A DNA stretch of 64,000 bases, from the NCBI GenBank assembly GCA_028285105.1, contig JANQQE010000011.1, positions 383,856-447,855 on the forward strand, in the 5' to 3' direction. The DNA comes from Alphaproteobacteria bacterium. GTDB lineage: Bacteria; Planctomycetota; Phycisphaerae; UBA1845. Shown in pieces: positions 5,967 to 59,686 of this stretch (its first letter is position 1; every line of letters starts with the position of its first letter). The position numbers and the translations under genes were made by a program. The notes below the pieces were generated by a model. The model worked only from the letters and a program-made list of their open reading frames with translations. It was not told the DNA's origin and did no database searches.

Positions 5967-6016
5967 GGTTCGATCCGTTTCTTGCTGGCGATTCTGTTAT
6001 TTTCTTGAGAAATGGC

Positions 6017-6706: not shown

Positions 6707-7464
6707 CTCTTTCTCCTGAGCTTTTTTCGCTGAACGTCGGCGACGAATCGCGCGAGTTCGGCCTTCTGCTCTGCAAAATCGACCGTGGGCAAAGGAATCA
6801 AGCGCAAACCCCACAATTGCTTGTGTTCCGTCCCAATCGATTTCTTGTGACACAACTTGGCGGCTGCCACCTTTCGACCGCATTCATCGTCTAGCTCATA
6901 CTCGACAAAGAACGTCATCCCATTCTTTGCATCAAGCAGTTCTTTTGCGTGCAGGACGATTGCCATTCCTCTTGCACTGATGTCGCGTATCACGCAGGGA
7001 TGCGATGTCGTCGCAAGGTCGCAAGCGTTTTCAAATCGCGCACTCGCTCGCATGATTCGGCAGTACTGACCAAGCGACGCAACACCGACTCGGTAGTCGC
7101 GGCGCCGTTGCTGAATCTTAAGCTCTGCCGGAATCGCCAACGCCATCCCGACGACGCGTTTCTTATCGTTGAGCCGAACGAGTCGCCGCATTTTTTCGAC
7201 CCGTGACTCAAACGACCATTGATCGTTGCCCTGCGTAAAGTAAACCGTGATTCCCTCGCCGCTGTGTAAAGAAACATCCTCATCGATGTTGTGCGGCTGA
7301 TCGATACAAACGGCGTCTTTCTCAAGGGTCAGGAATCGAAACCGTGCTGTCTTGATCGGATTGGAATGGAGCGCGTAGTGGATATCGCCCGAAACGTTGC
7401 GCGCACAGAGTCCTTGCAGGACTTCGGTCACTTCGGACGTTTCGACAACGGAGCTTTCGGACAC
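6703..7464 (-). CDS. YcgR-like PilZ domain protein (paralog 3)
   Basis: PilZ motifs QQRRRDYR ... IRDISARG. 253 aa. Its stop overlaps the start of the downstream paralog (ATGA). Confidence 0.65.
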   Translation of the reverse strand: MSESSVVETSEVTEVLQGLCARNVSGDIHYALHSNPIKTARFRFLTLEKDAVCIDQPHNIDEDVSLHSGEGITVYFTQGNDQWSFESRVEKMRRLVRLNDKKRVVGMALAIPAELKIQQRRRDYRVGVASLGQYCRIMRASARFENACDLATTSHPCVIRDISARGMAIVLHAKELLDAKNGMTFFVEYELDDECGRKVAAAKLCHKKSIGTEHKQLWGLRLIPLPTVDFAEQKAELARFVADVQRKKLRRKR

Positions 7465-38195: not shown

Positions 38196-38322
38196 GGTTC
38201 TTTCCCCGACTCATAATCCGATGGTACGCGCGGACCGCACATCTCACGCCCTACTGCCATCGTACCTATTGCGCGCCGGGCAGTTCAAGTCATTCAGTAT
38301 GGATGGAATTCGTGGTTTCGCG

Positions 38323-38634
38323 TCAGTCGTCGTAACGATCTTCGCAGCGGTCCAACCTGCGTTCGCAATCGTCGTTGTCCTGCTTCAACTCGCGTTCCTT
38401 CCGCTCGAGGCGTTGATTGCGTTCGCGGAGTTCGTCGATTTCAGCGTAGGCGTCAGCCAACCTGCGCCGGGCATCGTCGTGGCTGCTGGTCGGTGGAACG
38501 GAGCGGGTGTTGGTGGTGCCGCGTCGCGATCTTCCGACGTTGATGCGCTCCGGCGCTTTGACCGAAACGCAGCCCATCATTGCCAACGAGGCGACAAACA
38601 CCGAAACCAATGTGATGATTTGAAGACGCTTCAT
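38323..38634 (-). CDS. Small lipoprotein with a C-terminal charged coiled coil
   Basis: ATG 38634 preceded by AAGGAG. MKRLQIITLVSVFVASLAMMGC gives a lipobox. The C-terminal RRRLADAYAEIDELRERNQRLERKERELKQDND is coiled-coil-like. Confidence 0.5.
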   Translation of the reverse strand: MKRLQIITLVSVFVASLAMMGCVSVKAPERINVGRSRRGTTNTRSVPPTSSHDDARRRLADAYAEIDELRERNQRLERKERELKQDNDDCERRLDRCEDRYDD

Positions 38635-38835
38635 TTCAGACTCCTTTCGTCCATTCTGCGTTTCGCAGCCTGTGGTGAACATGGCGTCCACGAATGCTAC
38701 CCTTCTTCGCCCTACCGCGTCAACAATCATGAATTGCCAAATGCGGCAGATGGCGATCATGGCTGGTCACCATTCGTCTGCCGACTAGACTACAGGATCG
38801 TGTCTCAAAGTTTCAATTCCTGATCTTGGCATTCG

Positions 38836-40071
38836 TTGATGAACCGAAGCGAACGCTCCATTCTGATTGTTACAGGCATCGGACACGCTTTGTGCCATTG
38901 GTGGGCGTTGCTCGTTACGGGAATCTTTGAGCCCTTGCGCGCCGACTTCGGACTGACTGGATTTCAGGTTTCGGTGCTTCCGGTGATCGGTTATGTCCTC
39001 ATGGGTGCAGGTGCATTGCCGGCTGGCTACTTTACGGATCGAATCGGTCCGAAACCGATGTTGCTTGTTTACTTTGTTTCGACGGCACTGGCGTGTGTGT
39101 CTGCCGTGCTGGCTTCGTCGGCTGTCTCGTTTGCAATTTCACTGACCTTTCTCGGAGCCGCCATCAGCCTGTACCACCCCACCGGTCTCGCGATGATTTC
39201 GCATGGATTTGAAAAACGTGGACAGGCGATGGGCATTCATGGAATTGCCGGTTCCCTTGGACTATGCGGCGGACCGTTGGCCATGAACCTTGCGAATCTC
39301 GGTGACTGGCGTCTGAGCTATTGGGTGATGGCTGGCGTCTCTTTCTTGTCAATGGTTATTCTCTTGATGCTTCCGATCGAACTTCGCGAAGATCCTAGCA
39401 AACCAGCCGAATCGACCGAGGCCCCTGTCGAAACGATCAAACCATCGTATCGCCTGTTGGCGTTTCTCTTTGTGCCGATGATGTTGACGGGGATTAATTA
39501 CCGAGCGGTGATGACGGCGCTGCCGACGTATCTTTCCGGTGGCGATGGCGATTCGACACTGGCGAAATTCTTACTGTTTCTTGTGTTCCTTGCCGGCGGG
39601 GCGAGCCAGTTCTTGATGGGACGACGTGCCGATCGGTCGCATCCGTCGAAACTGTATGCCAACCTGATCGCGTTGAGTATCCCGTTGGCGCTGCTGCTCG
39701 CCTGGTCTGGCGGTGGAAGTTACCTTGCCATCGCGATCGCGCTGGTCTTGGCTGTCGTCCACTTCGGAACCCAGCCAGTCGAAAACCTGCTTATCGCCGA
39801 ACACACGCCACATTCCCTTCGCAGCATCTCGTACGGTTTGAAGTTCACATTAACGTTCGGTCTTGGTCCGGTGGCTGTGCCATTGGTGGGCTACTTTTGG
39901 GACGAAACGGGCACATTGGCTTGGACATTCGTATTGTTTGCGTTGATTGCAACCGTGGTTGCGATGCTGATCATGCGGTTGGTTAAACTCGTAGACGCGC
40001 AATCGCTGTCTACAGGAGCGCCCGCGATCGAATCCGCGGTCAGCTTAGGGACCGTCGATCAAACCGGATAG
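38836..40071 (+). CDS. MFS transporter
   Basis: 411 aa with 12 predicted TM segments in two 6-TM halves separated by a central loop. MFS-like motif region GYFTDRIGPK. Confidence 0.8.
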   Translation: MMNRSERSILIVTGIGHALCHWWALLVTGIFEPLRADFGLTGFQVSVLPVIGYVLMGAGALPAGYFTDRIGPKPMLLVYFVSTALACVSAVLASSAVSFAISLTFLGAAISLYHPTGLAMISHGFEKRGQAMGIHGIAGSLGLCGGPLAMNLANLGDWRLSYWVMAGVSFLSMVILLMLPIELREDPSKPAESTEAPVETIKPSYRLLAFLFVPMMLTGINYRAVMTALPTYLSGGDGDSTLAKFLLFLVFLAGGASQFLMGRRADRSHPSKLYANLIALSIPLALLLAWSGGGSYLAIAIALVLAVVHFGTQPVENLLIAEHTPHSLRSISYGLKFTLTFGLGPVAVPLVGYFWDETGTLAWTFVLFALIATVVAMLIMRLVKLVDAQSLSTGAPAIESAVSLGTVDQTG

Positions 40072-43000
40072 CGCATCCCAGTCGCCTTGATTTATCACGT
40101 CGCTGATACCGTCTATATCTGCGCATCCGCAACTGGGATTGACGAAGATGTTCTGCCCGAAACAGATCGAAAACAGATGCATGTCGAACAGATCGTAGTC
40201 GCCGTCGCTGTCCATATCGCCCGGTGCCAAACAGCAATCACCCACAGTCAGCTCAGCCTCCTCACTAAATTGGAAGCAATTTGGCCCAATGGTCAGAGCA
40301 CGCTGTTCGTAGACTCCTGCATCGGACGCCTGAATCGGATCGATGGTCAGCGTATCGGTGAATGAGCCTGTGACGCGGGACGAATCCACGATGGGATTTC
40401 CGTCTTTAAACCACTGCGTAAACTGCGTTAGTCCATCGGGCGAAACGGCGGTCGCAGTCATCGTTGCCACCTCACCGGGATCGGCGCAGGTATCGGTCGG
40501 CTGATTCGTGAATATCGGCCCAACGATGCTCAACGTCATTGCCTCGGACTCGACGCTCCGCCCGCAGCCGTCGGTAATTACGCATGAGTACCCGGGCTGG
40601 TCGGCTTGATCCTCAGACGACAAATCGTCAATTGTCAGCGATGCAGACTTTGCACCGCTTACTCGCTGGCTGTTCAGAATGGGTTCGCCATCTTTAAGCC
40701 ACTGATATTGCAATTGGTACCCCACGGCTTCGATCACCACGATGACCGTAGTATCAGTGCAACTCGAATCGGAGGCTGGCGGCTGAGTCACAATGGATGG
40801 TTCAGGCGATATCGCCAATTCGACGACATCGCTTTCAAGATTCATGCAACCAATTGAAACCACGCAATGGTATGAGCCAACCGCACTTTCTCCGGCATTC
40901 GCGATTGAAAGAATCGCCGCCATCGAACCGGACACATTGACGCTGTCCGCAAGCGGCAGGCCATCTTGATACCATTGAAAGGCCGTGGCCTGCGGCGCAT
41001 TAACCACAAACTGCGCCGTTGCCAGCGGACAGACCGAAGTCGATAGCGGCTGAGCAAGGATTAAGTCGCCCGTCTCGCAGTCGTCTGGGATATCGTTTTC
41101 GTTGCAATCCGGTTCGTCGCAAACGTCTGGCTTGCCATTGCCATTGCAATCGTCATGCGCCTCGCACACATCGAGTACGCCGCTGTCGTCGCAGTCCGGA
41201 TCGATCGCATCTTCGCATGAACCACAACCGAACTGCTCGACGAGCCCCACACAGAATTCGTCCCACTCGTCATCGCAGCACGAAGGCGCATCATCACATA
41301 CACACGCCTGAATAGTGGGGTTCGAACAACCGGGTCCATGTTCGATTTCGCAGCAGTCGCCCGGACCGATGATTTCAATTTCGCAATCGTCAGGCACGAG
41401 GTTCTCATTGCAATCGCTGGAAGTCTCGCCGGCAAGATCACATTCGTCCAACACACCGTTGCCATTGCAATCGGGCGTTTCGCATTCGTCCGGAATCGCA
41501 TTGACGTTGCAGTCGGTGCTGGTCGCGCCACCAATATCGCACGCATCAACGATACCGTTGGCGTTGCAGTCGGCTTCGCATTCGTCGGGAATGCTGTTGG
41601 AGTCGCAATCGACCGGGACGGTACATGTCCCGCAGCCATACTGCTCAACGCGATAGGCACAGATACCGTCCCAGTTGACCTCGCAGCAATAAGGGTCGGT
41701 GGCGCAAACGCACGCCTCAATCGATGCGTCTGAGCATCCTTTACCTACACTACCTTCACAGCAATCGTGTCCAAATGCACCGTCTACTTCGCACGCATCG
41801 GGCACGATGTTTTCGTTGCAATCCGGCTCGCCGGTAGCGATGTCGCAGTCGTCGGGAATACCATTGCCATTGCAATCGGTCTCGCAATCGTCGGGCAAAT
41901 GGTTCGCATTGCAATCGCTGCTTGTCGGACCGATGATGTCGCAACTGTCGGCTATACCATTGTCGTTGCAATCGGACTCGCACTCATCGGGAACTCCGTT
42001 TCCGCTGCAATCGTCGCTCGATTTGTTGGCGATGTCGCAGATGTCTTGTACACCGTTGGTGTTGCAATCGTCCTGCGGTTGGCATTCGTCCGGCACACCG
42101 TCACCGTCACAATCCGGTGAAATGCCCATCCCGATATCTTCAAAATCTGGCACACCATTGGTGTTACAGTCCGGAGGCTCGGATGCGACGCTTCCGGTGG
42201 CGATGAGCGCGAAACCTTGCGCCCCTTGATTAACGACCGTCCCTTTAATCCGAATGGTCCATTCACCCACGGTCGGACCCGATACGTGAACCTGTTCGAC
42301 GTTGTTGACGCTGTCTGCCGAACCGTTGGGAGCGGATTGCCCGTTGACGAAAACGTTTCCGCGATAAAGTTGTGCCTCGGGCGAAACGACTTCGAGGTCG
42401 AGGTTGTTGACAAGCGCCGCACTGCTTCCGGTTGACGCGGAGGCCGGCGGATCGGTATAAACGAGGGTCACGCGCAACTGTTCCTCATTTTCTAGCACGG
42501 TGACGGCGTATTCCTCAACCTGCTCAGTCGAAAGTCCGGATGCGTTGCGCAGATCGTCGAGTACCACAAGATGGGTGGCATCGCCGGCAAAGTACACCGC
42601 GTTGTCTGCCAGCAACCGCCCCCACCCCTCAAGATTCGACGGGTAGCCGCCAATCCCGGTCATGTCGACGGCGGAGTTGATGAGTACCGCTTTGATCAGA
42701 GCCCCGCTTGGCGTAAAGGCATCGTCGAGATTCGCTACGCCGGAAGGATAAAATCCCTCCATAAAATACTGCCGCACCAGCGTCGCAGTTCCCGCGACGG
42801 CTGGGCACGCCATCGACGTTCCCGTACTGGGCAGCACGTTGCAGGCACTCGGCACTGCCGAAATCGTATTGCACCCAGGCGCGTAGATTTCTGGCTTACG
42901 GCGCCCATCCGCCGTTGGACCAATGCCGCCACTACAATGATTCTGCTGATTCGGCGTATCCTGCGAAGCGCCGACCGCAAGAAGGTTTTTGGCATTTTCT

Positions 43001-44130
43001 GGATTGCGGAGCGTTGAACCGTTCGTCACCGCAAGGCACGCAAAATCGTCTTCATTTTGGTACAGAAAATCATCAAAACCGCGGCAGAGTCCGTTGTACG
43101 CAGTCGTGCCGTCGTCGCCCCAACTGTTCGTATGGATTCGGGCACCCTGACTGTGATGCAGTTCGAGGTTGGTCGAGATACCGGATTCCGTAAAACTCGG
43201 TACCGGGCTGAACACCATCTTTGAACCGTAGGCGACACCGCGGCGGCTGTCATCGACGCCATTGTTGCCAGCCGCCGTGCAGGCTACGTGTGTACCGTGT
43301 GAACTGTTACCGTCGAACGAGTTGTAAAATAGAAACTTTCCGCCATCCAGCGAACAATGGTGGACATCGGGCCGGCCGTCCATAATTCCGATGATTTGAT
43401 TTTCGCCGCGAAGACCATGATCGTAAAACGGAAATTCCTGTGACACATTGCTCTGCACAATCCACCGCGTGGTGTTGTTTCGCAAGGTGATCTCAGGTGC
43501 TTCCTCAACCAACTGCACGGTCTTGATGTCTGCCAGCGATTCGACGCGATCTTCGGAGATATCTGCGAAAATGACGACACTGTCTGCAACACGCTCACGC
43601 CCATGGACCGTCGCCCCTCGCTTCCGCAACGCTACGATTGCAGTCTTGGGATCCTCATGTGCAAACAGAGTGATCATCAGACGAACCCGACCGGACTCGG
43701 CCAGTTCAATGCGCTCCGGCGTCTCAAGCGGAGCGATACGCTTCCCAATTCGCGGAGAGCATTTCCATTCGCGGCGGTACTCTCCCAACCATTGGACAAA
43801 TGGAATCGCAGCCAACTCGTCGCGCGATACACGCTTGACATCAGCAATGTAGGCATGGTCGGGCACGTATTCGTGCAGTACAACGCCAAGTTTTTGAAGT
43901 CGCGTTCGTTGACGCGCATTGATCGGCCCGGTCAATTGCAGAATCACGCGATGGGTCTTGGCAAAATCAAACTTGCGCGCGTCAAGCAAGCTGGATTCCC
44001 ATCGGGTGTCCAGTTCGCCAGCTTGCAGGAGCAGTCGGCATGACGCTTCACCGGTTTGTGGCGTTTGTTGCCCGAGCGCAGACGCGCCAAAAAAACAAGC
44101 AATAAGAATTGACAAGAAAGCGCGACGCAT
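40045..44130 (-). CDS. Giant secreted S8 subtilisin-family serine protease with DCNxNGxPDxCE repeats, two copies of a 10-Cys module, three Ig-like domains and a C-terminal dockerin-like domain
   Basis: Signal peptide. Catalytic residues in subtilase order: Asp (IGIMDGR), His (HGTHVACTAAG), Ser (GTSMACPAVAG). Tandem DCN..NG..PD.CE repeats. Duplicated module CC-x6-GC-x7-CVC-x4-CC-x3-WD-x2-C-x7-GCGxC. Three Ig-like repeats (FQWYQDG, YQWLKDG, TQWFKDG). C-terminus GDMDSDGDYDLFDMHLFSICFG...DIDGISDVINQGDWDALSGLIDGP. Confidence 0.85.
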   Translation of the reverse strand: MRRAFLSILIACFFGASALGQQTPQTGEASCRLLLQAGELDTRWESSLLDARKFDFAKTHRVILQLTGPINARQRTRLQKLGVVLHEYVPDHAYIADVKRVSRDELAAIPFVQWLGEYRREWKCSPRIGKRIAPLETPERIELAESGRVRLMITLFAHEDPKTAIVALRKRGATVHGRERVADSVVIFADISEDRVESLADIKTVQLVEEAPEITLRNNTTRWIVQSNVSQEFPFYDHGLRGENQIIGIMDGRPDVHHCSLDGGKFLFYNSFDGNSSHGTHVACTAAGNNGVDDSRRGVAYGSKMVFSPVPSFTESGISTNLELHHSQGARIHTNSWGDDGTTAYNGLCRGFDDFLYQNEDDFACLAVTNGSTLRNPENAKNLLAVGASQDTPNQQNHCSGGIGPTADGRRKPEIYAPGCNTISAVPSACNVLPSTGTSMACPAVAGTATLVRQYFMEGFYPSGVANLDDAFTPSGALIKAVLINSAVDMTGIGGYPSNLEGWGRLLADNAVYFAGDATHLVVLDDLRNASGLSTEQVEEYAVTVLENEEQLRVTLVYTDPPASASTGSSAALVNNLDLEVVSPEAQLYRGNVFVNGQSAPNGSADSVNNVEQVHVSGPTVGEWTIRIKGTVVNQGAQGFALIATGSVASEPPDCNTNGVPDFEDIGMGISPDCDGDGVPDECQPQDDCNTNGVQDICDIANKSSDDCSGNGVPDECESDCNDNGIADSCDIIGPTSSDCNANHLPDDCETDCNGNGIPDDCDIATGEPDCNENIVPDACEVDGAFGHDCCEGSVGKGCSDASIEACVCATDPYCCEVNWDGICAYRVEQYGCGTCTVPVDCDSNSIPDECEADCNANGIVDACDIGGATSTDCNVNAIPDECETPDCNGNGVLDECDLAGETSSDCNENLVPDDCEIEIIGPGDCCEIEHGPGCSNPTIQACVCDDAPSCCDDEWDEFCVGLVEQFGCGSCEDAIDPDCDDSGVLDVCEAHDDCNGNGKPDVCDEPDCNENDIPDDCETGDLILAQPLSTSVCPLATAQFVVNAPQATAFQWYQDGLPLADSVNVSGSMAAILSIANAGESAVGSYHCVVSIGCMNLESDVVELAISPEPSIVTQPPASDSSCTDTTVIVVIEAVGYQLQYQWLKDGEPILNSQRVSGAKSASLTIDDLSSEDQADQPGYSCVITDGCGRSVESEAMTLSIVGPIFTNQPTDTCADPGEVATMTATAVSPDGLTQFTQWFKDGNPIVDSSRVTGSFTDTLTIDPIQASDAGVYEQRALTIGPNCFQFSEEAELTVGDCCLAPGDMDSDGDYDLFDMHLFSICFGQNIFVNPSCGCADIDGISDVINQGDWDALSGLIDGP

Positions 44131-45180: not shown

Positions 45181-46056
45181 CTATGTCTGCAAGACGACCT
45201 GAGCGTCGGCCAACAGTTCCGGTATTTCGTCGCGGATTTCGACCAATTGCTCAACGGTAACGCCCACGCAATCCAGCAGTTCTTGCGTGAATTCTTCGGT
45301 GGCTGCCGTCAATGAGAATCCATGCTGTTCCTGACAACAGAGAATGTCGGCGGTGTGTACGATCATGCCGATGCGCTTCAATTCGTCCGAGAGCTCTTCG
45401 GGATTGTGATGGTAACCCACCGCCGCCCGAAGATGCCTCGGGAATTTCCACTTGGTCGTCAACGCATCGCCAAGTTCTTGATGCGTCGGGCCGATCAGTT
45501 CACGTTCAAGGTCCAACCACGATTCCGAACCGTCGGCGCTACGACGCGCGATTTCATTCAACTGATCCGGAAACGCCTGACGCTCGATCAGAATCCCCAG
45601 GTCGTGAATCAGACCCGCCAGAAACACTTCATCATGACCGGCAACATCGCCGGCTGCAATGCAGATTCGCTTCGCGCAAACCGAGACCGCAAGGCTATGC
45701 ACCCACATCTGCTTGGCGTCAAAGTATTCAAGTTGATTGCCGCTTTTGAACATGCGTGAGATCGACGCTGCGATTGAAATGTTCTTGACCGCAGACAAGC
45801 CCAACAGAACGATCGCGCGATCGACACTCGCCACCTGTCCGGGCAGACCATAAAACGCCGAGTTCACGACCTTCAACACCTTCGCCGAAAGCGCCGGGTC
45901 CTGCTTGATGACATTGTGCAGATCGCGGGCCGTGCCTTTTGGATCTTCCACAACTTCGATGATCTTCACAGTCACCTCGGGAAGCGTTGCGATTTCACCC
46001 ACAGCAGCAATGGCCTTGGCAACAATGGCTTTGTTGTCTTCCGTTTGTACTTGCAT
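45181..46056 (-). CDS. HDOD domain signalling protein
   Basis: Start ATG 46056 with AGGAG 7 nt upstream. HDOD-like helical domain with an HD-type motif (GHDEVFLAGLIHDLG). About 290 aa. Confidence 0.65.
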   Translation of the reverse strand: MQVQTEDNKAIVAKAIAAVGEIATLPEVTVKIIEVVEDPKGTARDLHNVIKQDPALSAKVLKVVNSAFYGLPGQVASVDRAIVLLGLSAVKNISIAASISRMFKSGNQLEYFDAKQMWVHSLAVSVCAKRICIAAGDVAGHDEVFLAGLIHDLGILIERQAFPDQLNEIARRSADGSESWLDLERELIGPTHQELGDALTTKWKFPRHLRAAVGYHHNPEELSDELKRIGMIVHTADILCCQEQHGFSLTAATEEFTQELLDCVGVTVEQLVEIRDEIPELLADAQVVLQT

Positions 46057-46229
46057 GATGGCTCCTACGAGCAGCGCCTGGGCGATCCCTCGCCGATCAA
46101 TTCGGCATGGCCCTACGTCCGTGTTGTACTTCGGCACGGGTTTGGGGTGTATTTAGAAGCTAATATATTGCGACTTGAAGTGAATGCGCCGTTCGATAAC
46201 GCCGCCGACAATATCGGGCGTTTTCGATT

Positions 46230-46844
46230 TCACTTTTCGAATACGCGCTGGCGTCCCATCCACATGCTTTCTCCAACGGCGGCCAAAGCAAGCAATGGTA
46301 ACGTCCAGAAAAATGTGACGGACCAGGAAGCGATCGGTGTTTGCAATTCGACCGGTTGGGTTATCGGGACTTCATGCCGCATCAATGCCAGCGCCAACGT
46401 CAATCCGATCGCGGGAAGTTCCAATAAATTCAGCAGCATTCCGATGCTGACGACAGGATCGGCGGAATTTGAAGCAGATAATTCAGCGTCATTTTTTTCC
46501 CCTTCGATATTCCACCCGAATTCCACCACCATCACACGAAGCGCCGCACCAATGGCCAAACCTGCCGCCGCGATCGTAAACCACGGAAGCAATGGCACCG
46601 ACCCACTCGCCACCAGCAGCACGCAGATGGACGCATTGTTAACAAAGATCGCCATCGCGCGCAGTGGTAGCGACGGACGCTTCAGTACCGGAACAAGCAC
46701 CCCCAACACCCACCACCGCATGACCTTCGTCAGAACGAATTCGCCAGTCGCGCACATCCCCCATCCCGAAATTGCCCCCAGCAAAAGAACGATTCCGCCA
46801 AATATTCCGGGCTTAAACAGAACTTGGATGCTTTCGACAATCAT
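46230..46844 (-). CDS. Integral membrane protein, function unknown
   Basis: 204 aa with about six hydrophobic segments. Preceded by the REP-like hairpin immediately upstream of its ATG. Confidence 0.5.
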   Translation of the reverse strand: MIVESIQVLFKPGIFGGIVLLLGAISGWGMCATGEFVLTKVMRWWVLGVLVPVLKRPSLPLRAMAIFVNNASICVLLVASGSVPLLPWFTIAAAGLAIGAALRVMVVEFGWNIEGEKNDAELSASNSADPVVSIGMLLNLLELPAIGLTLALALMRHEVPITQPVELQTPIASWSVTFFWTLPLLALAAVGESMWMGRQRVFEK

Positions 46845-46850
46845 TTAATT

Positions 46851-46875
46851 GTAGGGTCCGCTATGCGGACCCTAC
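46851..46875. repeat. REP-like perfect palindrome GTAGGGTCCGC-TAT-GCGGACCCTAC (copy 1 of 2)
   Basis: 11-bp perfect inverted repeat with a 3-nt loop, located between the HslV-like gene stop and the membrane protein start. A near-identical core recurs at 61823..61843. Confidence 0.5.
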
Positions 46876-46896
46876 CATTCGCGGCAATCATCTGCG

Positions 46897-47475
46897 CTAG
46901 CGTACCCGAATCACAACGACGTCAGTTGTTCCACCGCACGTCTGTTCGAAATGAACGGCTGCTTCGACCGCAGCTTTTGCGATCTGTTCGGCCGTTCGCT
47001 TGCTCTTGTAGAGCGCGTGCATCGCCCCATAGGCATATTTTTCACCGGAACCAATCGCCGCATACTGCGTAAACTCCATCACGCTGAGATCGCGCGATAC
47101 CGAGAAGATACCCTTGGGACTGCCGATCATGAATTCGGCATCGATGTCGGCGAAGGGCGAACGATCGTCGCGGTCCGGCTGATCGTTGACGACCTGGTAC
47201 TTCTTGCGAATCGCCTTCCAGAATTTCAAGAAGAACTCGAACACCCGCTGCTCAGAATTCAAAGATGGCGCGCGGCTAAACGTGCCCAGATAGTGGTCAA
47301 GGATGTTGTCATAAACCGACCAACCCACGCCGCCCATGCAGCACGCACCCACTTTGCGCAACTTGGTCGATGCAACAAGATTCTCCTCATGCTCCCGCCG
47401 CGATCCGGAAGAATGCATCCGGTCGGCAGCCAAAGCTATTTGATCGCCCTTGCGGACGGCAACAATGATCGACAT
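46897..47475 (-). CDS. Orphan HslV-like Ntn-hydrolase (T1 peptidase family) with Ser at the position of the nucleophilic Thr
   Basis: Start ATG 47475 (MSIIVAVRKGDQIALAADRM) parallels HslV TTIVSVRRNGHVVIAGDGQ. C-terminal AAIGSGEKYAYGAMHAL parallels HslV AIGSGGPYAQAAARAL. About 192 aa. No hslU is present in the window. Confidence 0.65.
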   Translation of the reverse strand: MSIIVAVRKGDQIALAADRMHSSGSRREHEENLVASTKLRKVGACCMGGVGWSVYDNILDHYLGTFSRAPSLNSEQRVFEFFLKFWKAIRKKYQVVNDQPDRDDRSPFADIDAEFMIGSPKGIFSVSRDLSVMEFTQYAAIGSGEKYAYGAMHALYKSKRTAEQIAKAAVEAAVHFEQTCGGTTDVVVIRVR

Positions 47476-47703
47476 CAAAGATACTCCATCTAGAGATACC
47501 ACAATCAAGTCGAGAAGGATGATCGAATGATGCCGTACGGTCAATGGGCCCAGACGCATGCATACATGCGGTCAATTAAGTCCCGAGGCTTATCGCCAAG
47601 TCGACACTTGCCTCCGGCTTATATGCGCCGGTAGAATTCATGGCATGGACGGGCTCGGTCAGAATGCCATCATGGCATTCGCCTGCAACAGGAGACATCC
47701 AAC

Positions 47704-48411
47704 ATGCACACCAATACCACTTGGTATCACCGCGCCGTGGGAACGCTGATGGTGGCGGGAATTCTGTCCATTACCATGGGTGCCGCCGAGGAGGACCAAT
47801 CCAAAGCAAACAAACGCGATTTTAATGCCGCACCCAAAGTTGGCGAGGACGCGCCAAACTTCAGACTCAAGCGCCACGACGACGAGTCCAAGGCAGTCGA
47901 ACTCGCGTCATTCAAGGGAAAGAAACCGGTTGTGCTGATTTTTGGAAGTTATACGTGACCGCCCTTTCGGCGTCAGGTTGGCGCCCTCAACAAACTGTAC
48001 AAAGACTACGGTGACGCAGCCGAGTTTTTTGTCGTCTACATTCGCGAAGCCCACGCGGCAGACAGCGATTGGCCGATGCCCGTCCCCGATCGAACAATCA
48101 ACACCCCAAAATCGATCAAGGATCGTCGTGAAGTTGCCAAAACATGTGTGAAGGATCTGGGCATCAAGATTCCCTGTCTCATAGACGACATCAAAAACAC
48201 AACCGACGGAAAATACAAAGGCTGGCCCGACCGCCTCTTCGTGGTAGACAAAGAAGGAAAGATCGCCGTAGCCGGCAAACCTGGTCCGTGGGGATTCAAA
48301 CCGGATGAAGTGCGAGCCTGGTTGGCCAATGAATTCTCTAACGCAAAGTCTGTTGATTCAATGACAAGAGATAATCCGGTCGAGAGCACGACGGGAAATC
48401 AGGATCGTTAG
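47704..48411 (+). CDS. Candidate selenoprotein: iodothyronine deiodinase-like thioredoxin-fold protein with an in-frame TGA (Sec) at 47956..47958
   Basis: The two ORF-track ORFs 47704..47958 and 48076..48411 are in the same frame. The 117 nt between them contains no stop. TGA falls exactly in the deiodinase active-site motif IFGSYT-U-PPFRR (compare the vertebrate DIO motif FGSCT-U-PPF). The downstream FFVVYIREAHAADSDWPMP matches the DIO YIxEAHxxDGW motif. The N-terminus has a hydrophobic anchor. Confidence 0.6.
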
Positions 48412-48454
48412 GTGAGGGTAGCCGGCGCAACGTCAATGTGGAGGCAGTGCAACG

Positions 48455-49204
48455 ATGCAACCGGGGTTCGATGGCGGAGACAATCTGGATCTTGAATTCG
48501 TTCTTGAAAGGGCGTTTGGAGTAAAGCTCGGTGGCCTGCTTGACATCGAACAAAACTCGGTCGATGGCGTCTATGAGTTCATAGGTCATCGAATTGAGTT
48601 GAAGGATCCAAAAAACCTTGACTTCATGTCTTGCCCGACATCTCGGGCGTATTTGTATTTCAAAGAAATCCTTCTTCAGTGCAATCCGAGTTTCGATTCG
48701 CAACTGGCGCCGAGTACCGACCTGGAAAAATTGATTCCCGAAGACGTTCGCCCAGTTGTCTGGCGGGAACTATCAAACAAAGGACTTCGACTCCCCGACT
48801 TGGGTATACCGGCTTGGTGCAGCTCGTTGGCATTCCTGATTGCATTAATGACTGCGGGCGCATTCGTAGCTTATGTGGTCACAACGGCGCTCTATTTGGC
48901 ATGCGTAATGTTTATCGGTGTGCCTATGGCGATCACCACTGGTCTAACCTTTGCCCCTCGTATTTTCTGGAAATGGGGACGCAAGATTCCGCGTCCGCTC
49001 AATACAGCCAGAGGAATGGCAACTTTTCTGGCCTATCGAAACTGCGAACCGGAATGGATTCCGCGAATGACAAGGCGTCAAGTCAAGGACGTAATTAGAC
49101 TGGTTGCAGCGCTCGAATACGATGTCCCTCTTGAAGACATCGACGATTTCAGGCTCCCATTTCCGCGCAGCGAGAAATACATTCCCGAACCCAGGAAATG
49201 TTGA
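48455..49204 (+). CDS. Hypothetical membrane protein in a visibly more AT-rich segment
   Basis: 249 aa with central hydrophobic helices (LAFLIALMTAGAFVAYVVTTALYLACVMFIGVPMAITTGL). No recognised domain. Composition differs from the flanking genes. Confidence 0.45.
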   Translation: MQPGFDGGDNLDLEFVLERAFGVKLGGLLDIEQNSVDGVYEFIGHRIELKDPKNLDFMSCPTSRAYLYFKEILLQCNPSFDSQLAPSTDLEKLIPEDVRPVVWRELSNKGLRLPDLGIPAWCSSLAFLIALMTAGAFVAYVVTTALYLACVMFIGVPMAITTGLTFAPRIFWKWGRKIPRPLNTARGMATFLAYRNCEPEWIPRMTRRQVKDVIRLVAALEYDVPLEDIDDFRLPFPRSEKYIPEPRKC

Positions 49205-49309
49205 TTGCTATCGCTGCTTGATCACAGATCGTCCTCCCGAAACGTATCCGCTTGATTCAAGTCTTGTACGTCGAGTCATCGACCCGACAGATTTGTTGAA
49301 TACACGTCA

Positions 49310-50509
49310 CTACCGCGACGCCAGATATGCAAAGCCGCCCGCTGCGGCTAATCCGGTTAGAATTGCGAATGTGATCTTCACCCAACTGTAGGGCCGGTCG
49401 CCTTGCACTTCCGCCGTTGTGGCGTTGACGACTACTTGGTAGACCTTGTCGGCGTAGCGGTAGCCCAACATCCATATCGGTAGGAGCAGATGTTTGTAGG
49501 TGATGGCGTTGTACTGCGTGTCGATGTTGTGGATGCGTTGGGTGTCACCGCCAATGTGAGAGCGGACGTCGGCCTCGATGGCCTTTTCGAAACGCAGTTT
49601 GGCTGTGGCGAACCCTTCGTCGAGTTCTACGTCGTACGTACGGGCCAGGAAACCGGCGAGCATTTCCTGATTGAACGGGCGACAATCCCTAAGCGGCCAG
49701 GGTTGTAAGGCGTCGAGGCGTTTGACCGGTACGCCCGATGCTGCCACGATCAATTCATCGTCGAAGAAGCGCTGAAACGTGCCCGATGCCGGCGACCAGC
49801 GTGTCTTTCGCACGCGTCGCTTATTCTTACCGGAACCGGTCGTCACGTAATAATAATCGCCGCGCTGCCCGTCGTAGTGCGTGGTGGTCAGTGTGTCGAA
49901 GGTCCAATATGGCGTGTACAGCCCCGAGAATTTCCCTTCGATACCTTCCTTCTTGAATCGGTTCGGGGCGAACCACCGCGACTTGATCCAGCCGGCCAGC
50001 GCTTCATGGGCTTTTATTCGATCGACGCGAAAAGCCATCACGCCATCGACCGGTACACGATTGTCGGCATCGTGAACATCTTCCAACTGAAGGGCCACGC
50101 CGCAATAGGCACACGCGCTACTCGTCAGCGTTCCCTGAAACTGCACCTTTGCACCGCAGGTCGAACATGGCACTTCGCTCAGTCCGCTGGTCTGATCAGA
50201 CTTGTCATTCCTCCACGTCGCGATCTGTTCGAGGGTCGCAGCGTAGTTCTGTTCATCGACGGATAACTCAGGATTGAATTCGAGTTCTTTGACGAATCCG
50301 CAGTACGAGCACTTTAGGCTTTGGACGCCGATGCTGAATTGCAAATCGGCCCCGCAACCTTCGCACGGGAACATGTGCCCGGAGCCATCTGTCGAGAATT
50401 GCGCGGAGGCATCATTCGGACCAGAACTCTGCGCATACGGCTCATCCCCGTCCGGATTGCTCTCATGGCGCGATGACTCGTCTGACATGCTTTGTTTGGT
50501 TTCGCTCAT
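49310..50509 (-). CDS. Zinc-ribbon protein (two CxxC...CxxC ribbons) with a C-terminal TM anchor
   Basis: FPCEGCGADLQF...KCSYCGF and VPCSTCGAKVQF...CAYCGV ribbons. C-terminal TM WVKITFAILTGLAAAGGFAYL. Co-directional with the two upstream genes, separated by a 19-nt gap. Confidence 0.55.
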   Translation of the reverse strand: MSETKQSMSDESSRHESNPDGDEPYAQSSGPNDASAQFSTDGSGHMFPCEGCGADLQFSIGVQSLKCSYCGFVKELEFNPELSVDEQNYAATLEQIATWRNDKSDQTSGLSEVPCSTCGAKVQFQGTLTSSACAYCGVALQLEDVHDADNRVPVDGVMAFRVDRIKAHEALAGWIKSRWFAPNRFKKEGIEGKFSGLYTPYWTFDTLTTTHYDGQRGDYYYVTTGSGKNKRRVRKTRWSPASGTFQRFFDDELIVAASGVPVKRLDALQPWPLRDCRPFNQEMLAGFLARTYDVELDEGFATAKLRFEKAIEADVRSHIGGDTQRIHNIDTQYNAITYKHLLLPIWMLGYRYADKVYQVVVNATTAEVQGDRPYSWVKITFAILTGLAAAGGFAYLASR

Positions 50510-50527
50510 GCAGGTTGCCGTTGACGG

Positions 50528-51199
50528 TTAGAACAAAATGTCGGCGATTGAACGGACGGCTCGAAATAAGTCCGATGCATCGATGATGGTCTCGGTGCGA
50601 TACTCGCGCGTGAAGATTGGGCGATCGTCGATCGGGCCAGTAAGCTTGGGCTTGCTCTGTTCGGCTTCGCGGGCCTTTCGCTTCTGCTCGTGAATCTGCC
50701 CGCCGGCTTTCGTCCACTTCAAGAGCGTATGCAACTCGCGCCCGTCGAGCCATACGCCGTGGTCACGACACTGGTCGACTATTACGCCCGACCGCGACCC
50801 ATAAGCCTTGCGATTCATGAACTTCTTGCAGTCGGGGCACTTGATATACTTGACGTCCTTGAGAGTCTCGATGCCCTCCTCCTCAACCAGCGTTGCCAAT
50901 CGTGGATAATCGACTTCGTACACTTTCGAGACCGATTCATCCAAAACCGATTCAAGTTCGCCAGGGTCGAAGAAAATGCCATGACACTTCAAGCATCGAT
51001 CCACACCAAATCCACCGTCAACTTCGAGTTGAACAATTTGCAACACTTCCTCGCAGCGTGGGCAGTCGCGCGAACCGGTCTCTCGGTTCCCATCGACGCG
51101 GCGGGCAACGTTTCGCAAATCGACGTCGTTGAGCGTCTTGCAGAATGTGCATCGGATGGACTTGGGTGGTAATGGCGCGCCGCAATTTGTGCAGTTCAT
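50528..51199 (-). CDS. Tandem TFIIB-type zinc-ribbon (zf-TFIIB-like) protein
   Basis: Two copies of the pattern DCPxC...C.CHG.W.D.GEL (DCPRCEEVL...CLKCHGIFFDPGELESVL and KCPDCKKFM...QCRDHGVWLDGRELHTLL), plus an N-terminal CxxC...CxxC. Confidence 0.6.
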   Translation of the reverse strand: MNCTNCGAPLPPKSIRCTFCKTLNDVDLRNVARRVDGNRETGSRDCPRCEEVLQIVQLEVDGGFGVDRCLKCHGIFFDPGELESVLDESVSKVYEVDYPRLATLVEEEGIETLKDVKYIKCPDCKKFMNRKAYGSRSGVIVDQCRDHGVWLDGRELHTLLKWTKAGGQIHEQKRKAREAEQSKPKLTGPIDDRPIFTREYRTETIIDASDLFRAVRSIADILF

Positions 51200-51256
51200 G
51201 ACTGGACCTGTATCAAAATGCGTTCGGTCGTATCCAGCAACCTATCCAAATGAACG

Positions 51257-52381
51257 TTACTTCGCTGGTGGCGGCGGCGGAGGTGCGGCGTTAAAGAAGG
51301 ACGCGAGTTGAGGAACCTGACCCGCCGCCATCCACGAACCCATCCCAGCGCTCCACACCATCGTATCGGGCGCGATCTTTCCCTGCGCGATCATCGCCGG
51401 AATCTGCGCCATCGCACATTGGCCCTGAACCGCACCATTTGCCGCGATGTGCCAAATTCCACCTGGCGGTGGCGGAGGCATCCCGCCCGGCATCTGTCCA
51501 CCTGGCGCTTGGCCACCGGCCATGTTCGAACCGTCCATCATTCTGCCGGCCATCGCAAATCCCATGCCGAGGCCCATGCCTTCAGCCGCCCCGCCGCCTG
51601 CGGGATTCTCAGCCGCGGCAGTCATTGCCTGACCCATCTGATATTGCTGGAAGCGTCCCATGTCGCCGATGACGCCCATGCTGGTGCGCGTGTCGAGCGC
51701 TTTTTCGACGGCTTCGGGCAGGGAAATGTTGACGATGTATAGCTGCGGAATGTCGAAACCGAATTCATCGTCGATGCGTTCGACGGCACTCTTGCGAAGC
51801 AGTTCCGAGAATTCCTGATACTTCGATGCGAGATCGAGCGCTGCGATTTTAGACTCGCCGATGACGTCGGCGAAAGCGGTGTTGATCACCGATCGAATGA
51901 ATTCATGAATCTCATCGGTGTCGAAGCTGGCGTCGGTTCCGACGAGTTCCTTCAAGAGCGCCCGAGGGTCTGCGGCTTTGAGCGCGTAGGTTCCAAACGC
52001 CCGCAAGCGGATCGGCCCGAACTCCGGATCGCGCAACATAATCGGATTCGGCGTACCCCATTTCAAATCGGTGACCTGCCGCGTGTTGACGAAATACACC
52101 TCAGACTTAAACGGACTGTCGAACCCGTGCTTCCAACCTTGCAGCGTGCTGAGGATCGGCAGGTTGTCGGTCCGCAGTTCATAATGACCCGGTTCAAACA
52201 CGTCAGCCAACTCGCCACGATGGACGAAGACAGCCACCTGCCCCGGGCGAACAATGAGTTGTGCGCCATTCTTAATCTGGTTGTGGTAACGGGGGAATCG
52301 CCACACGAGTGTGTCGCGCGTGTGGTCCAGCCACTCAACAATATCAACCAATTCACCGCGAAGTTTGTCCAAAAACCCCAT
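51257..52381 (-). CDS. SPFH/band 7 (Band_7_1-type) protein with a Gly/Met/Pro-rich linker and a C-terminal GYF-like/DUF4339-like domain
   Basis: Start ATG at 52381 by codon arithmetic (MGFLDKLRGE..., GGAG 8 nt upstream). SPFH-like core. Low-complexity GMGLGMGFAMAGRMMDGSNMAGGQAPGGQMPGGMPPPPPGG. C-terminal WHIAANGAVQGQCAMAQIPAMIAQGKIAPDTMVWSAGMGSWMAAGQVPQL. The ORF-track start at 52600 is a GTG extension. Confidence 0.7.
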   Translation of the reverse strand: MGFLDKLRGELVDIVEWLDHTRDTLVWRFPRYHNQIKNGAQLIVRPGQVAVFVHRGELADVFEPGHYELRTDNLPILSTLQGWKHGFDSPFKSEVYFVNTRQVTDLKWGTPNPIMLRDPEFGPIRLRAFGTYALKAADPRALLKELVGTDASFDTDEIHEFIRSVINTAFADVIGESKIAALDLASKYQEFSELLRKSAVERIDDEFGFDIPQLYIVNISLPEAVEKALDTRTSMGVIGDMGRFQQYQMGQAMTAAAENPAGGGAAEGMGLGMGFAMAGRMMDGSNMAGGQAPGGQMPGGMPPPPPGGIWHIAANGAVQGQCAMAQIPAMIAQGKIAPDTMVWSAGMGSWMAAGQVPQLASFFNAAPPPPPPAK

Positions 52382-52532
52382 GCCGATTCTCCTATGCCAC
52401 ACCCGAATTCGGCCCGCATCCCGAGCGAAACTGCGTGTTGGCCAATGCCTGTGTGAGTCAAGCCTACCGGTGCCGTTTGGAGGGGTCAAGGCGGGCGCAA
52501 AATCGGATGGATTCTGACGCGATTCGACAGAA

Positions 52533-54125
52533 TCAGTTGGCAAATTGGTAGCGGGTGTCGCTGGGATCCTGGCCCGATGCGACTTTGACACCGCGATCAC
52601 CGTTGTGGGCCAAGCGATTGAGTATCTTGTAAATCCATTCGACGCGCTCGGGTTTTTGAATGCACTCTGCCAACTCGGCGGCTGACATTGCCTGGTCGGG
52701 ATGGTCGCGCAGGTATGTCAGCACTTTGCTCTGCACGTCCAGCACTTCCGTCGCGGCGCGCTTGCCAGCCTCGACGCCGGGTTGGTGGTAGGCGTTGATG
52801 CGGACCAGAAATGCGTACAGACCTACAGCGCGTTCATAAAGCGCAATCAGTGCCCCGATGCGATGGGCATTGACCTTATCGATCTGAATGGTGATCGATT
52901 CGCGATCTTTCTCTGTGAGGGCTTCGCGGGTTCCCAGCAGGAATCCGGCAAGGTAGTCGCCTGTCTTGATCGATTCGTCCGCGTCGATCGATTCGCCTTC
53001 GCGATCGCTCAACACATCAACGAATGTTACGTAAAAGTTGTTCATACCCTCACGCAGTTGCTGCACATACGCATGCTGGTCGGTGGAACCCTTGTTGCCG
53101 TAAACGCTGATCCCCTCTTCGACGACATTACCGTCGAGGTCGAATTCCTTACCCAGCGATTCCATGATGAGTTGTTGCAGGTATCGCGACATCAGCGAGA
53201 GACGATCCTTGTAAGGGATGACCACCATGTCGCGCAATCCGCGTGATTTGGCCGCATCGTACCACATCGCTGCCAACAAGGCGGCTGGGTTGGATCGCAG
53301 GTCATGCTGGCGAGTGCATTCGTCCATTGCCTTCGCGCCGGAAAGCAATTCGTCGATGTCGATTCCGCACAATGCGGCTGGCAGCAATCCGACTGCCGAC
53401 ATCTGCGACGTTCGCCCGCCGACCCAGTCCCACATCGGAAAGCGCTTGAGCCAACCGCGGGACTTGCTCAACTCGTCGAGGGCACTGCCTTCACCGGTGA
53501 TCGCGACGGCGCACTTGGCAAAGTCCAAACCGCGCACTTTGAACGCATGGGCCACTTCGAGCATGCCGTTACGCGTTTCTTTCGTTCCGCCGCTCTTTGA
53601 GACAACAAGGGACAAGGTCTCATTCAACCGATCGCCCAACTGCGCGACGATCCGGTCGATGCCGTCAGGGTCGGTGTTGTCGATGTAGTGAATCTGCATC
53701 GGATCGTCGGGATTACCCAGGGCGTCAGCCACGAATTGCGGGCCGAGCGCCGAACCGCCAATACCGATTTGCAAGACTTGCGTGAAGCGTCCACCGGATG
53801 GTGTAGCGATCGCCCCGCCATGCACTTCAGCCGCAAATCTCTTAATGTCACTGACAGTCGATTCAATCGCATGTGAGAGGTCGGCACTGGGTGCTCGACT
53901 TGCATCGCGCAGCCAATAGTGGCCTACCATTCGATTCTCATCGGGGTTGGCGATTGCGCCGGATTCCAATGCGTCCATCGCACCGAAAGCCACTTCCATT
54001 GGTTGGGTCAAGTCATCGAGAAACGACGGTGCAAATTTCATGCGCGACACGTCGAGACGCAGACCCGTTGCCTCGCAGTTGCAAAGGTACTCGCAATACC
54101 GCTTCCAAAGATCAATTGCTTCCAT
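52533..54125 (-). CDS. pgi: Glucose-6-phosphate isomerase
   Basis: Start ATG 54125 ([10 protein letters not shown]...). Conserved PGI regions [30 protein letters not shown] and [11 protein letters not shown]. About 530 aa. Confidence 0.9.
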
Positions 54126-56056: not shown

Positions 56057-57751
56057 TTAAGATGGATTGCCTTGCCGTGCCAGCGGACTCGGTACAAACG
56101 GCGGTTTGTCGAAGTCACTGTCCACCGGTGCAAGGTCGAGTTCCTCAAACAAAAGTGCCGGCGCGATCACTGACTGACCGCCATCGCCACCCAACACGTT
56201 CATCACCGCCGGTTTGTCACCTACGGCCAGTATTCGCTTGAACGCCCTGGCGTCTGCGCGAATGCCGCTCACCCCGCGCACCAGTTCCTCGCGACCATCG
56301 GGATACACTTTGTAGACTTCCAACGGCGAACGACCGCTTAGCGAGGCAACGCGGATGCCGAACTCGTTGTCTTCATCTTGAAATGCATCGATGAACTCTT
56401 CAAGCATCGCCTCTTGGGTCAACGGATCGGTCGATGACAACATCAGATTCGAGGTTTTCGCAGTCGGACGCGATGAACCGCGGCCATGCCCGGTGGATTT
56501 CTTGAATTCCTTCGACGGATTTCGCGACATGACCAATTCCTTGAGGCGACCTTTCTCAACAAGCGTTTGCTTCTGAGCCTTCACACCCTGATCGTCATAG
56601 TCGTACTCGCCCAGCAAAATTTCGCCGTTGAACTCTTTCAAGCCGGGATCGTCCACCACCGTCACCGATCGCGGCAAAATGCGCTTTCCCAGTTTCTTTT
56701 CGAAATCGTCCGACCGACTCTGACTGCCCACGGGTCTTTGGCCACCCGCAAATCGATTGGCAAACGTTCCACCAAAAAGGGCCGACGCAGCCGACGCATC
56801 CACGAGTACTGGACCGGTGTACGTCGATTCCAGTTTTGAGGCGCTGCGAATCATCATCAGTCGATCGGTCATCTCGCGAATCTTTGGTTCAAGTTCTTTG
56901 GCTGTGGGCATTTCGAGCGGTTCGCCGACATAGACCGACATCGAATCGCTGAGTCGCATGCCGTCGTCGGCTTGCACCAATGCGACTACCATGATCTCCA
57001 GGACTGCTCCCTGGGTTCGCAATCGCGTGCCTTCGGTGTTGACCAGGTATTCGTTTCCCCCACCACCGCGAATTCGAACGACCGACCGCTGCACATCGGG
57101 ATAGTCGCGAAAAACAGCTGACAATTCGATCGCGAGCGACTCCATCTCGGTAACGGGCACCTTCAAATCGCGCAATGGTTCAATCGCGACCGTAGGTTCC
57201 TCACGCGTGAAATCGACCGGTTTGTCTTCAATGACTTTGCTTTCCATCAGCGCCTGCTTTCGCGGGAACGCTTCTGCCGCACTCTTGTAACTGCGGTCCG
57301 TAGCCCACCAGATCGCCTGACGAATGGCTTTGTAGTCGTCTTCAATTGGCAATGACGCCCGGGCCAATCCGGAGTAACCGCCACCGACAAAGTTCGTATT
57401 GTCAAGCTCGTATGACCCGACGCGCGTCTCGACGCGAAGTTGCCGGACATGTTGATCGTCGCGCTCCAGCACCGAACCGAGCGATGCAGTGACACTTGCA
57501 TACCGTGCGTCTTGCGCGCCGTACTCGATAAAGTAAGGCCGCTTCAAATCTTCAAGCTTCAGCCCGGCCAATCCGCGATCGAGTTCATCGACCATCGTGC
57601 GGAGCAGCACGTCTTTGGTCATGACTTTCTTGACGTCCGTGATCGCCGAATTTTCGGCATCCGCAGGCGCAACCCACACGGTCAACGCGATCATTCCGCA
57701 CGTCACCGCGCATGTCCACACCTGGTTTCGATTCGATGCGATCCAACTCAT
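56057..57751 (-). CDS. pmbA: TldE/PmbA-family metallopeptidase-like protein, exported
   Basis: Start ATG 57751 gives signal peptide MSWIASNRNQVWTCAVTCGMIALTVWVAPADA. PmbA_TldD family region with GHGRGSSRP. Its start overlaps the tldD stop (ATGA). Confidence 0.75.
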   Translation of the reverse strand: MSWIASNRNQVWTCAVTCGMIALTVWVAPADAENSAITDVKKVMTKDVLLRTMVDELDRGLAGLKLEDLKRPYFIEYGAQDARYASVTASLGSVLERDDQHVRQLRVETRVGSYELDNTNFVGGGYSGLARASLPIEDDYKAIRQAIWWATDRSYKSAAEAFPRKQALMESKVIEDKPVDFTREEPTVAIEPLRDLKVPVTEMESLAIELSAVFRDYPDVQRSVVRIRGGGGNEYLVNTEGTRLRTQGAVLEIMVVALVQADDGMRLSDSMSVYVGEPLEMPTAKELEPKIREMTDRLMMIRSASKLESTYTGPVLVDASAASALFGGTFANRFAGGQRPVGSQSRSDDFEKKLGKRILPRSVTVVDDPGLKEFNGEILLGEYDYDDQGVKAQKQTLVEKGRLKELVMSRNPSKEFKKSTGHGRGSSRPTAKTSNLMLSSTDPLTQEAMLEEFIDAFQDEDNEFGIRVASLSGRSPLEVYKVYPDGREELVRGVSGIRADARAFKRILAVGDKPAVMNVLGGDGGQSVIAPALLFEELDLAPVDSDFDKPPFVPSPLARQGNPS

Positions 57752-59490: not shown

Positions 59491-59686
59491 TTGACTCACC
59501 TTTACCAAAAGGGATTGGAACGACTCTGTGCCGATGGCGAGTTGTTATACACCCTCGACCAGCCAATGCAAAACAAACGAACGCCTGGGTATGCGATTGT
59601 TACGTCGCAGCCGGACAATTGGTTTCGGAGCATTTGAACGATCTTAAGTCACGCGGCCCCGCAGGTCCGCCAATGATCGGAGAAGT

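Follow-up and report, generated by a model that had tools for sequence, protein, structure and literature searches.

The 64-kb window analyzed here (the whole stretch of 64,000 nucleotides from contig JANQQE010000011.1, assembly GCA_028285105.1, placed by GTDB in the Phycisphaerae of the Planctomycetota) raises the question of whether two short open reading frames (ORFs) lying in one frame at positions 47704-48411, the first of them ending in TGA, are the remains of a broken gene or the two parts of a single gene in which UGA is decoded as selenocysteine (Sec, U). The second answer is favored, with a probability of roughly 0.9: as judged from sequence comparisons, the locus would be one functional gene, its product a thioredoxin-fold enzyme of the deiodinase family that is exported or anchored in the membrane and whose catalytic residue 85 is predicted to be selenocysteine.

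Direct translation of positions 47704-48411 (plus strand) gave one frame of 235 codons, whose sole internal stop is the TGA at 47956-47958 and whose terminal stop is TAG (48409-48411). A mechanical ORF list divides it into 47704-47958 (84 amino acids) and 48076-48411 (111 amino acids) in the same frame, and the 117 nt (39 codons) between the two are free of both stop and start codons; this was also the arrangement proposed in a first-pass annotation of the DNA, and re-reading of the sequence agrees with it. The local motifs of the gene are FGSYT-(TGA)-PPFRR and VVYIREAHAADSDW, and the active-site stretch of the deduced protein reads VVLIFGSYT-U-PPFR. The ATG at 47704 is preceded by a Shine-Dalgarno-like AGGAG (47690-47694, 9 nt 5' of the start codon), read from the sequence. 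About 67 nt 5' of the start codon lies a weak sigma-70-like promoter match on the plus strand (TTGCCT-18 nt-TAGAAT, 47608-47637, 9 of 12 hexamer matches), a consensus match alone, with no evidence of function; together with this promoter-like site, the gene appears to be a solitary unit. The Logan assembly SRR20820731 was 100% identical to the window over positions 46310-53509 (7.2 kb), TGA included, its reads being possibly the window's own, and gene calling on it produced the same split into 84 and 111 amino acids. Because this assembly (maybe from the same reads) has the identical TGA, and neither TGC nor TGT, a sequencing error at this codon is unlikely.

The genome scan, which covered one genome per GTDB species, returned 322 related stretches, and the best 80 of them were retained as loci L001-L080. 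They belong mostly to metagenome-assembled genomes (MAGs) of Planctomycetota, with some from Acidobacteriota, share 38-80% identity with the window protein, and have their closest representatives in Phycisphaerae and Planctomycetota MAGs. TGA stands at the Sec85 column in 80 of 80 loci; all of them read U-P-x-F (UPPF in 79), and none has Cys at position +3. Among the best 120 homologs listed from the protein database, Cys occupies the column in at least 78, which read FGSxT-C-PPF, and also in most of the other full-length ones, so that the Sec or Cys expected of homologs in the first-pass annotation is what was found. About 35 of the same 120 are fragments of 130-180 amino acids starting just past the Sec column, and they therefore bear the signature of genes cut at the TGA by gene callers. 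The family is large, with 818 cluster representatives at E ≤ 1e-30; Planctomycetota have it in abundance, often in more than one copy per genome. Two separate Sec-encoding deiodinase-like genes were found in the same MAG in the pairs L006/L010, L011/L048, L051/L058, L053/L067, L054/L073 and L020/L066; one of the MAGs with two Sec copies is the 8-Mb chromosome OZ245006.1.

Several public sequences show other states of this column. Four protein predictions have W (P0003, P0005 and P0015) or G (P0016) at the Sec position, and these are mis-annotated selenoproteins, genetic code 4 or 25 having evidently been applied to the TGA. The homolog P0001 (locus L081), 60% identical to the window protein, is a Cys form with TGC at the Sec column that retains the downstream hairpin described below; the presence of this hairpin beside TGC suggests a recent Sec-to-Cys conversion. 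Another Cys form, P0002 (TGC; L082/L083, 1442-5684), lies divergent beside selB-selA, and its downstream hairpin has been lost.

Comparison with the closest locus, L001 (80% identity), gave nonsynonymous and synonymous substitution rates (dN/dS) of 0.05/1.53 over 120 codons past the TGA, i.e. a ratio of about 0.03, and of 0.136/1.16 over 45 codons before it. Purifying selection past the TGA is thus strong. Of 35 other long ORFs examined in the window, 12 terminate at TGA, so that this codon has not been reassigned and the genetic code is standard. A mechanical scan of the window for other selenoprotein genes produced 108 candidates with an in-frame TGA, which were rejected as essentially noise. 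In the one tidy case among them (38194-38823 and 38836-40071, plus strand), neither a redox motif nor a convincing hairpin was found, and the arrangement is probably a coincidence; its first part is a TGA-ended ORF without a Pfam match, lying in frame with an MFS transporter gene 12 nt further on.

A candidate bacterial selenocysteine insertion sequence (SECIS) follows the TGA, a feature for which the first-pass annotation had suggested looking in this interval. The predicted hairpin GGCGUCA-GGU-UGGCGCC (47969-47985, plus strand) has a stem of 7 bp that begins 10 nt past the UGA and a GGU apical loop. It fits the description of bacterial SECIS elements as stem-loops that are placed shortly past the UGA and whose small apical loop contains a G (Zhang, Fomenko and Gladyshev, 2005; PMC1088965). 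In the set of 81 sequences formed by the window and the 80 loci, a hairpin of 5 bp or more was present in 81 of 81, starting 10-22 nt from the U of the UGA, and the apical loop contained GGU in 64 of 81. Two registers, tracking protein subgroups, were distinguished: type A, to which the window belongs, has the GGU loop at nt 21-23 and encodes, for example, RRQVGAL or RREVPAL; in type B, nt 18-35 read UCAGCC-GGUC-GGCUGA almost without variation, the loop lies at nt 25-28, and the encoded peptides are, for example, RxSAGRL. The two registers are offset by 4 nt, which is not a multiple of three. Across 21 type-A sequences, changes on both sides of the stem were observed at 6 of 7 pairs, with compensatory examples including GGCGGGA/UCCCGCC, GGUCCCA/UGGGACC and GACGCGA/UCGCGUC. 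Pairing in these 21 sequences reached 98%, vs 39-58% when the 3' partners were slid by 1-3 columns, a figure that is partly circular since the set was picked for pairing; for that reason the compensatory changes, and not the pairing percentage, are the informative part. Under random synonymous recoding of PPFRRQVGAL with the codon usage of the window, the chance of 7/7 pairing was 0.009. No Rfam family, and no bacterial SECIS model, matched the hairpin or the window at gathering scores, and two Rfam hits near the gene were dismissed as chance-level only.

For profile and sequence searches, U was replaced by C in the product. Over residues 34-209, the Pfam model T4_deiodinase (PF00837) scored 120.2 bits (cut-off 27; E = 1.1e-34), so that the likeness to deiodinases is not due to chance; the overlapping models AhpC-TSA (48 bits) and Redoxin (45 bits) were far weaker. 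The predicted thioredoxin-fold catalytic domain accordingly spans positions 47803-48330 (plus strand). The NCBIfam model NF038285 (deiodinase_rel) gave 171.8 bits, under its cut-off of 250, with positions 173-337 of 347 matched. The top sequence matches in the PDB were mouse Dio3 (4tr3, E = 2e-21) and Dio2 (9h48, E = 4e-19), with thiol-disulfide oxidoreductases of the ResA type ranking much lower. The fold was assessed on the Cys homolog P0001 with AlphaFold2: the model had a mean predicted local distance difference test (pLDDT) score of 85, above 90 in the catalytic domain, with an N-terminus disordered to about residue 55, and its best folds in the PDB were Dio3 4tr3 (E = 1.8e-14, template modeling (TM) score 0.78) and Dio2 9h48, followed by ResA, DsbE and Bcp. 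The reading of the gene as a deiodinase-like selenoprotein of 235 residues thus combines frame, Pfam match, PDB relatives and dN/dS.

Residue by residue, the TGA codon aligns exactly with Sec170 of mouse Dio3 (4tr3 being the Sec170Cys mutant), with FGSYT-U-PPF facing FGSCT-C-PPF, which bears out the earlier placement of the TGA at the deiodinase Sec site; together with the column conservation described above, this alignment supports selenocysteine (Sec85) at 47956-47958 (plus strand). Ser82 and Thr84 align with Dio3 Ser167 and Thr169. The second deiodinase hallmark, which the first-pass annotation had given as YIxEAHxxDGW, is likewise present: the segment YIREAH..W aligns with YIEEAHPSDGW of Dio3, and the motif YIREAHAADSDW at the edge of the deiodinase insertion (48037-48072, plus strand) supplies Tyr112, Glu115, His117 and Trp123 as counterparts of Dio3 Tyr197, Glu200, His202 and Trp207. 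In deiodinases, these Tyr, Glu, His and Trp residues, with the Ser and Thr that precede Sec, form the proton relay and the edge of loop D (PMC11592359). Among 30 homologs, Y112 and E115 were invariant and H117 nearly so. Of the cysteines, Cys148 is kept in 90% or more of the close homologs, and Cys158 lies two positions off the distal Cys239 of Dio3. Inspection of the window protein sequence revealed neither a CxxC motif nor the T-x-x-C / PxxxTxxC motif of peroxiredoxins.

The selenocysteine machinery was found beside the homologous gene in other genomes. In six Planctomycetota relatives (L003, L004, L005, L016, L059 and L068), selB-selA directly adjoins the TGA-containing gene, and two of these, L059 and L068, have a tRNA-Sec placed between them (ARAGORN; Rfam RF01852, 66-69 bits). 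The sel-linked stretches are 144-2237 in L003, 152-2284 in L004, 521-2485 and 1-816 in L005, 811-2766 and 3-848 in L016, 4-1955 and 2635-2730 in L059, and 3648-6475 in L068. In Proteobacteria, fdhA accompanies the sel operon, and the position of the deiodinase-like gene beside selB-selA resembles that association. In the window lineage, as in L001 and L002, the adjacency to selB-selA has been lost. From the maintained UGA, the hairpin and the coding constraint downstream, we infer that the window organism would possess the Sec trait. In L021, ARAGORN reported a 97-nt 'tRNA-???' with the four-base anticodon tggg (1515-1611, minus strand), roughly 1.4 kb away from one of the deiodinase-like Sec genes; it had neither a tRNA nor a tRNA-Sec match in Rfam and was rejected.

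The N-terminus (47704-47787, plus strand), reading MHTNTTWYHR-AVGTLMVAGILSITMGAA and then an acidic linker, is basic at its start; a hydrophobic core of 18 residues follows, and small residues (G-A-A) precede EE. The segment resembles a Sec-pathway (general secretory pathway) signal peptide or an uncleaved anchor; comparable N-termini occur in L001-L003, in Cys homologs and in most homologs overall. Given such a signal or anchor, the catalytic domain should face the periplasm, and the membrane anchor and periplasmic orientation suggested in the first-pass annotation are retained as an expectation from the sequence. Selenocysteine insertion in bacteria follows a well-established decoding scheme. 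If it applies here, the UGA at 47956-47958 would be recoded co-translationally, with the hairpin at 47969-47985 acting as the bacterial SECIS that brings SelB to the ribosome, its loop being bound by SelB-GTP-Sec-tRNA(Sec) when the UGA occupies the A site, and translation would continue to the TAG at 48409. The exported enzyme may then run a two-step redox cycle of the deiodinase/peroxiredoxin type outside the cytoplasm. In such a cycle, the selenolate of Sec85, tuned by a conserved network of Ser82, Thr84, Tyr112, Glu115 and His117, would attack an electrophilic atom, either the oxygen of a peroxide or sulfenate or the halogen of a halogenated aromatic, and the resulting Se-OH or Se-halide could be reduced back via a selenenyl-sulfide formed with the semi-conserved Cys148 or Cys158 or with an external periplasmic thiol.

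Some of the observations do weigh against selenocysteine at this locus. Pfam scans of roughly 40 ORFs of the window revealed no selA, selB or selD; no tRNA, and hence no tRNA-Sec, was detected in the 64 kb, and no sel genes were found in the 9 kb past the right end of the window. The folding energy of the hairpin is unexceptional (z = -0.42 vs shuffles; p = 0.28 vs synonymous recodings), so that its support is drawn from position, loop motif and covariation, the last from a set chosen for its pairing. Missing Sec genes in the window are also what a pseudogene would predict, i.e. a dead or truncated gene in which TGA has replaced a former TGC or TGT (Cys) and from which only the 84-residue fragment is made; the splitting of the locus into 84 and 111 amino acids by gene callers and the existence of close Cys forms such as P0001 point the same way. 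A decaying gene is nonetheless hard to reconcile with TGA at the identical column in all 80 related loci from different species, with a dN/dS of about 0.03 past the TGA at saturated synonymous sites, with a conserved and covarying SECIS-like hairpin, or with the same TGA in the Logan assembly (reads possibly shared), and we regard it as very improbable; the first-pass annotation, which had argued against a Cys-to-stop pseudogene from its two motifs, is upheld on these broader grounds. Equally improbable is a readthrough of UGA that inserts Trp or Cys through near-cognate decoding, or that follows a lineage-specific reassignment. It could appeal to the W or G residues of P0003, P0005, P0015 and P0016 and to the pipelines that use TGA-sense codes, but those entries come from sites of the Cys/Sec type, the nucleophile of a thioredoxin fold cannot be Trp or Gly, and TGA terminates 12 of the 35 long ORFs. 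Neither would readthrough of this kind account for a hairpin whose position and small G-containing apical loop match the bacterial SECIS of the literature, or for the physical linkage of selB-selA in six relatives, two of them with tRNA-Sec. Decoding of the UGA as selenocysteine therefore remains the preferred reading of the locus.

What a selenoenzyme at this locus would act on is considerably less certain than its catalytic residue. A peroxide or thiol-type reductase is the assignment given most weight, and only tentatively; a true periplasmic reductive dehalogenase, removing iodine or bromine from halogenated phenolics, is possible but doubtful, and thyroid hormone is unlikely as the natural substrate. 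Deiodinase-like chemistry is favored by the retention of the animal-type U-P-P-F site, as opposed to the UxxC of redox-type relatives, and of the deiodinase insertion, whose edges are kept with most of the relay residues (Ser, Thr, Tyr, Glu, His and Trp); in both sequence and fold, moreover, the closest characterized relatives are the iodothyronine deiodinases, ahead of peroxiredoxins or ResA. Against it, the second relay histidine of Dio3, His219, is replaced by Pro135, the proximal Cys168 by Tyr83 and the substrate clamp Arg275 by Pro193, an Arg at the last position being present in many close homologs of the window protein. There are no halogen-metabolism genes among the neighbors and, across the window and the 80 loci, no conserved neighbor pointing to a substrate, a reductant or an electron donor; the literature searched contains no assay of any bacterial member. 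The missing counterparts of His219 and Arg275, taken with the view of the original describers, who judged a general redox role likelier (PMC1088965), favor such a role for the predicted selenoenzyme.

The window gene is a member of a selenoprotein family known since 2005, and is neither new nor rare as a kind. The deiodinase-like family was described from the Sargasso Sea with 4 Sec and 6 Cys sequences and a bacterial SECIS (PMC1088965), and was found again in 2008 with 22 Sec and 21 Cys sequences (GOS; PMC2398784). Reviews of 2022 (PMC9312934) and 2026 (PMC13188914) list it as 'Deiodinase-like protein, PF00837', of unknown function and with the motif UxxC. Of the description of bacterial members in the first-pass annotation as rare and functionally uncharacterized, the second part accordingly stands, whereas rarity does not, given 322 related stretches in GTDB species genomes. 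The published prokaryotic proteins share with the window gene a bacterial origin, the PF00837 match, the pairing of UGA and Cys forms and a stem-loop of the bacterial SECIS type with a G in the loop. They differ in the motif, UxxC in the reviews vs U-P-x-F in the window gene and all 80 loci, and in the material, which consisted of a few marine metagenome reads, whereas here the gene lies on a Phycisphaerae-like Planctomycetota chromosome segment, and selB-selA is a frequent neighbor of its relatives. No paper connecting deiodinase homologs with Planctomycetota was found in the literature searched.

With the animal deiodinases DIO1-3, the window protein has in common the thioredoxin fold with the deiodinase insertion, Sec within S-x-T-U-P-P-F, an N-terminal hydrophobic segment, the Y-I-x-E-A-H...W residues, and the conserved Arg141, Asp161, Tyr171, Arg177 and GPxG. 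Identity is nevertheless only about 30%, the distal Cys239 of Dio3 has no exact counterpart, and the SECIS is of the bacterial type and lies within the coding sequence, unlike the eukaryotic element in the 3' untranslated region. Peroxiredoxins (AhpC-TSA) and ResA/TlpA proteins resemble it in having the thioredoxin fold, in being exported and in placing the nucleophile at the N-terminal end of helix alpha-1, but are distinguished by their CxxC or PxxxTxxC motifs, while the insertion of about 40 residues is a property of the window protein. NF038285 proteins match strongly in the C-terminal catalytic domain, and differ in about 170 N-terminal positions of the 347-position model that are absent from the window protein.

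Divergent from the gene, on the minus strand, lie a proteasome-like gene (46897-47559; PF00227, weak, 30 bits), a SpoIIM-like membrane protein gene (46230-46844) and an HDOD gene (45181-46137), all three common only to L001 and L002; the membrane protein gene downstream (48455-49204) is not common to the relatives. Across the 80 loci, the only recurrent neighbors were selB, selA and an unrelated kinase. Elsewhere, the window encodes three very large predicted secreted proteins (15911-18715, 19074-22373 and 40045-44130) that combine hydrolase domains of the BNR/sialidase-like, reprolysin M12B and subtilase S8 types with eukaryote-type immunoglobulin I-set/Ig_3 domains, one of them also having a Dictyostelium CTDC repeat. 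On the minus strand, at 5172-7464 and 56057-59508, there are tandem groups of three PilZ-domain genes and of two metallopeptidase genes of the PmbA/TldD type.

For the annotation of this genome, the consequence is that the two hypothetical fragments of 84 and 111 amino acids are corrected to one gene, and that the window organism is marked, on sequence grounds, as a probable selenocysteine user. The gene itself will not surprise a selenoprotein specialist. Its group is common in Planctomycetota, has the animal-type U-P-P-F site and is linked to selB-selA, and would therefore make a convenient bacterial model for a question that has stood for 20 years, namely the role of the non-animal deiodinase homologs and the origin of the thyroid-hormone deiodinases. 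That the UPPF Sec homologs of Planctomycetota, which adjoin selB-selA in several Phycisphaerae-like genomes, are the main reason for the retention of the Sec machinery in these lineages, or that they are genuine periplasmic reductive dehalogenases of natural iodo- or bromo-aromatics, is a more speculative proposition, to which we give little weight. If the latter were true, these homologs would be the bacterial functional ancestors of the enzymes that act on thyroid hormone in animals.

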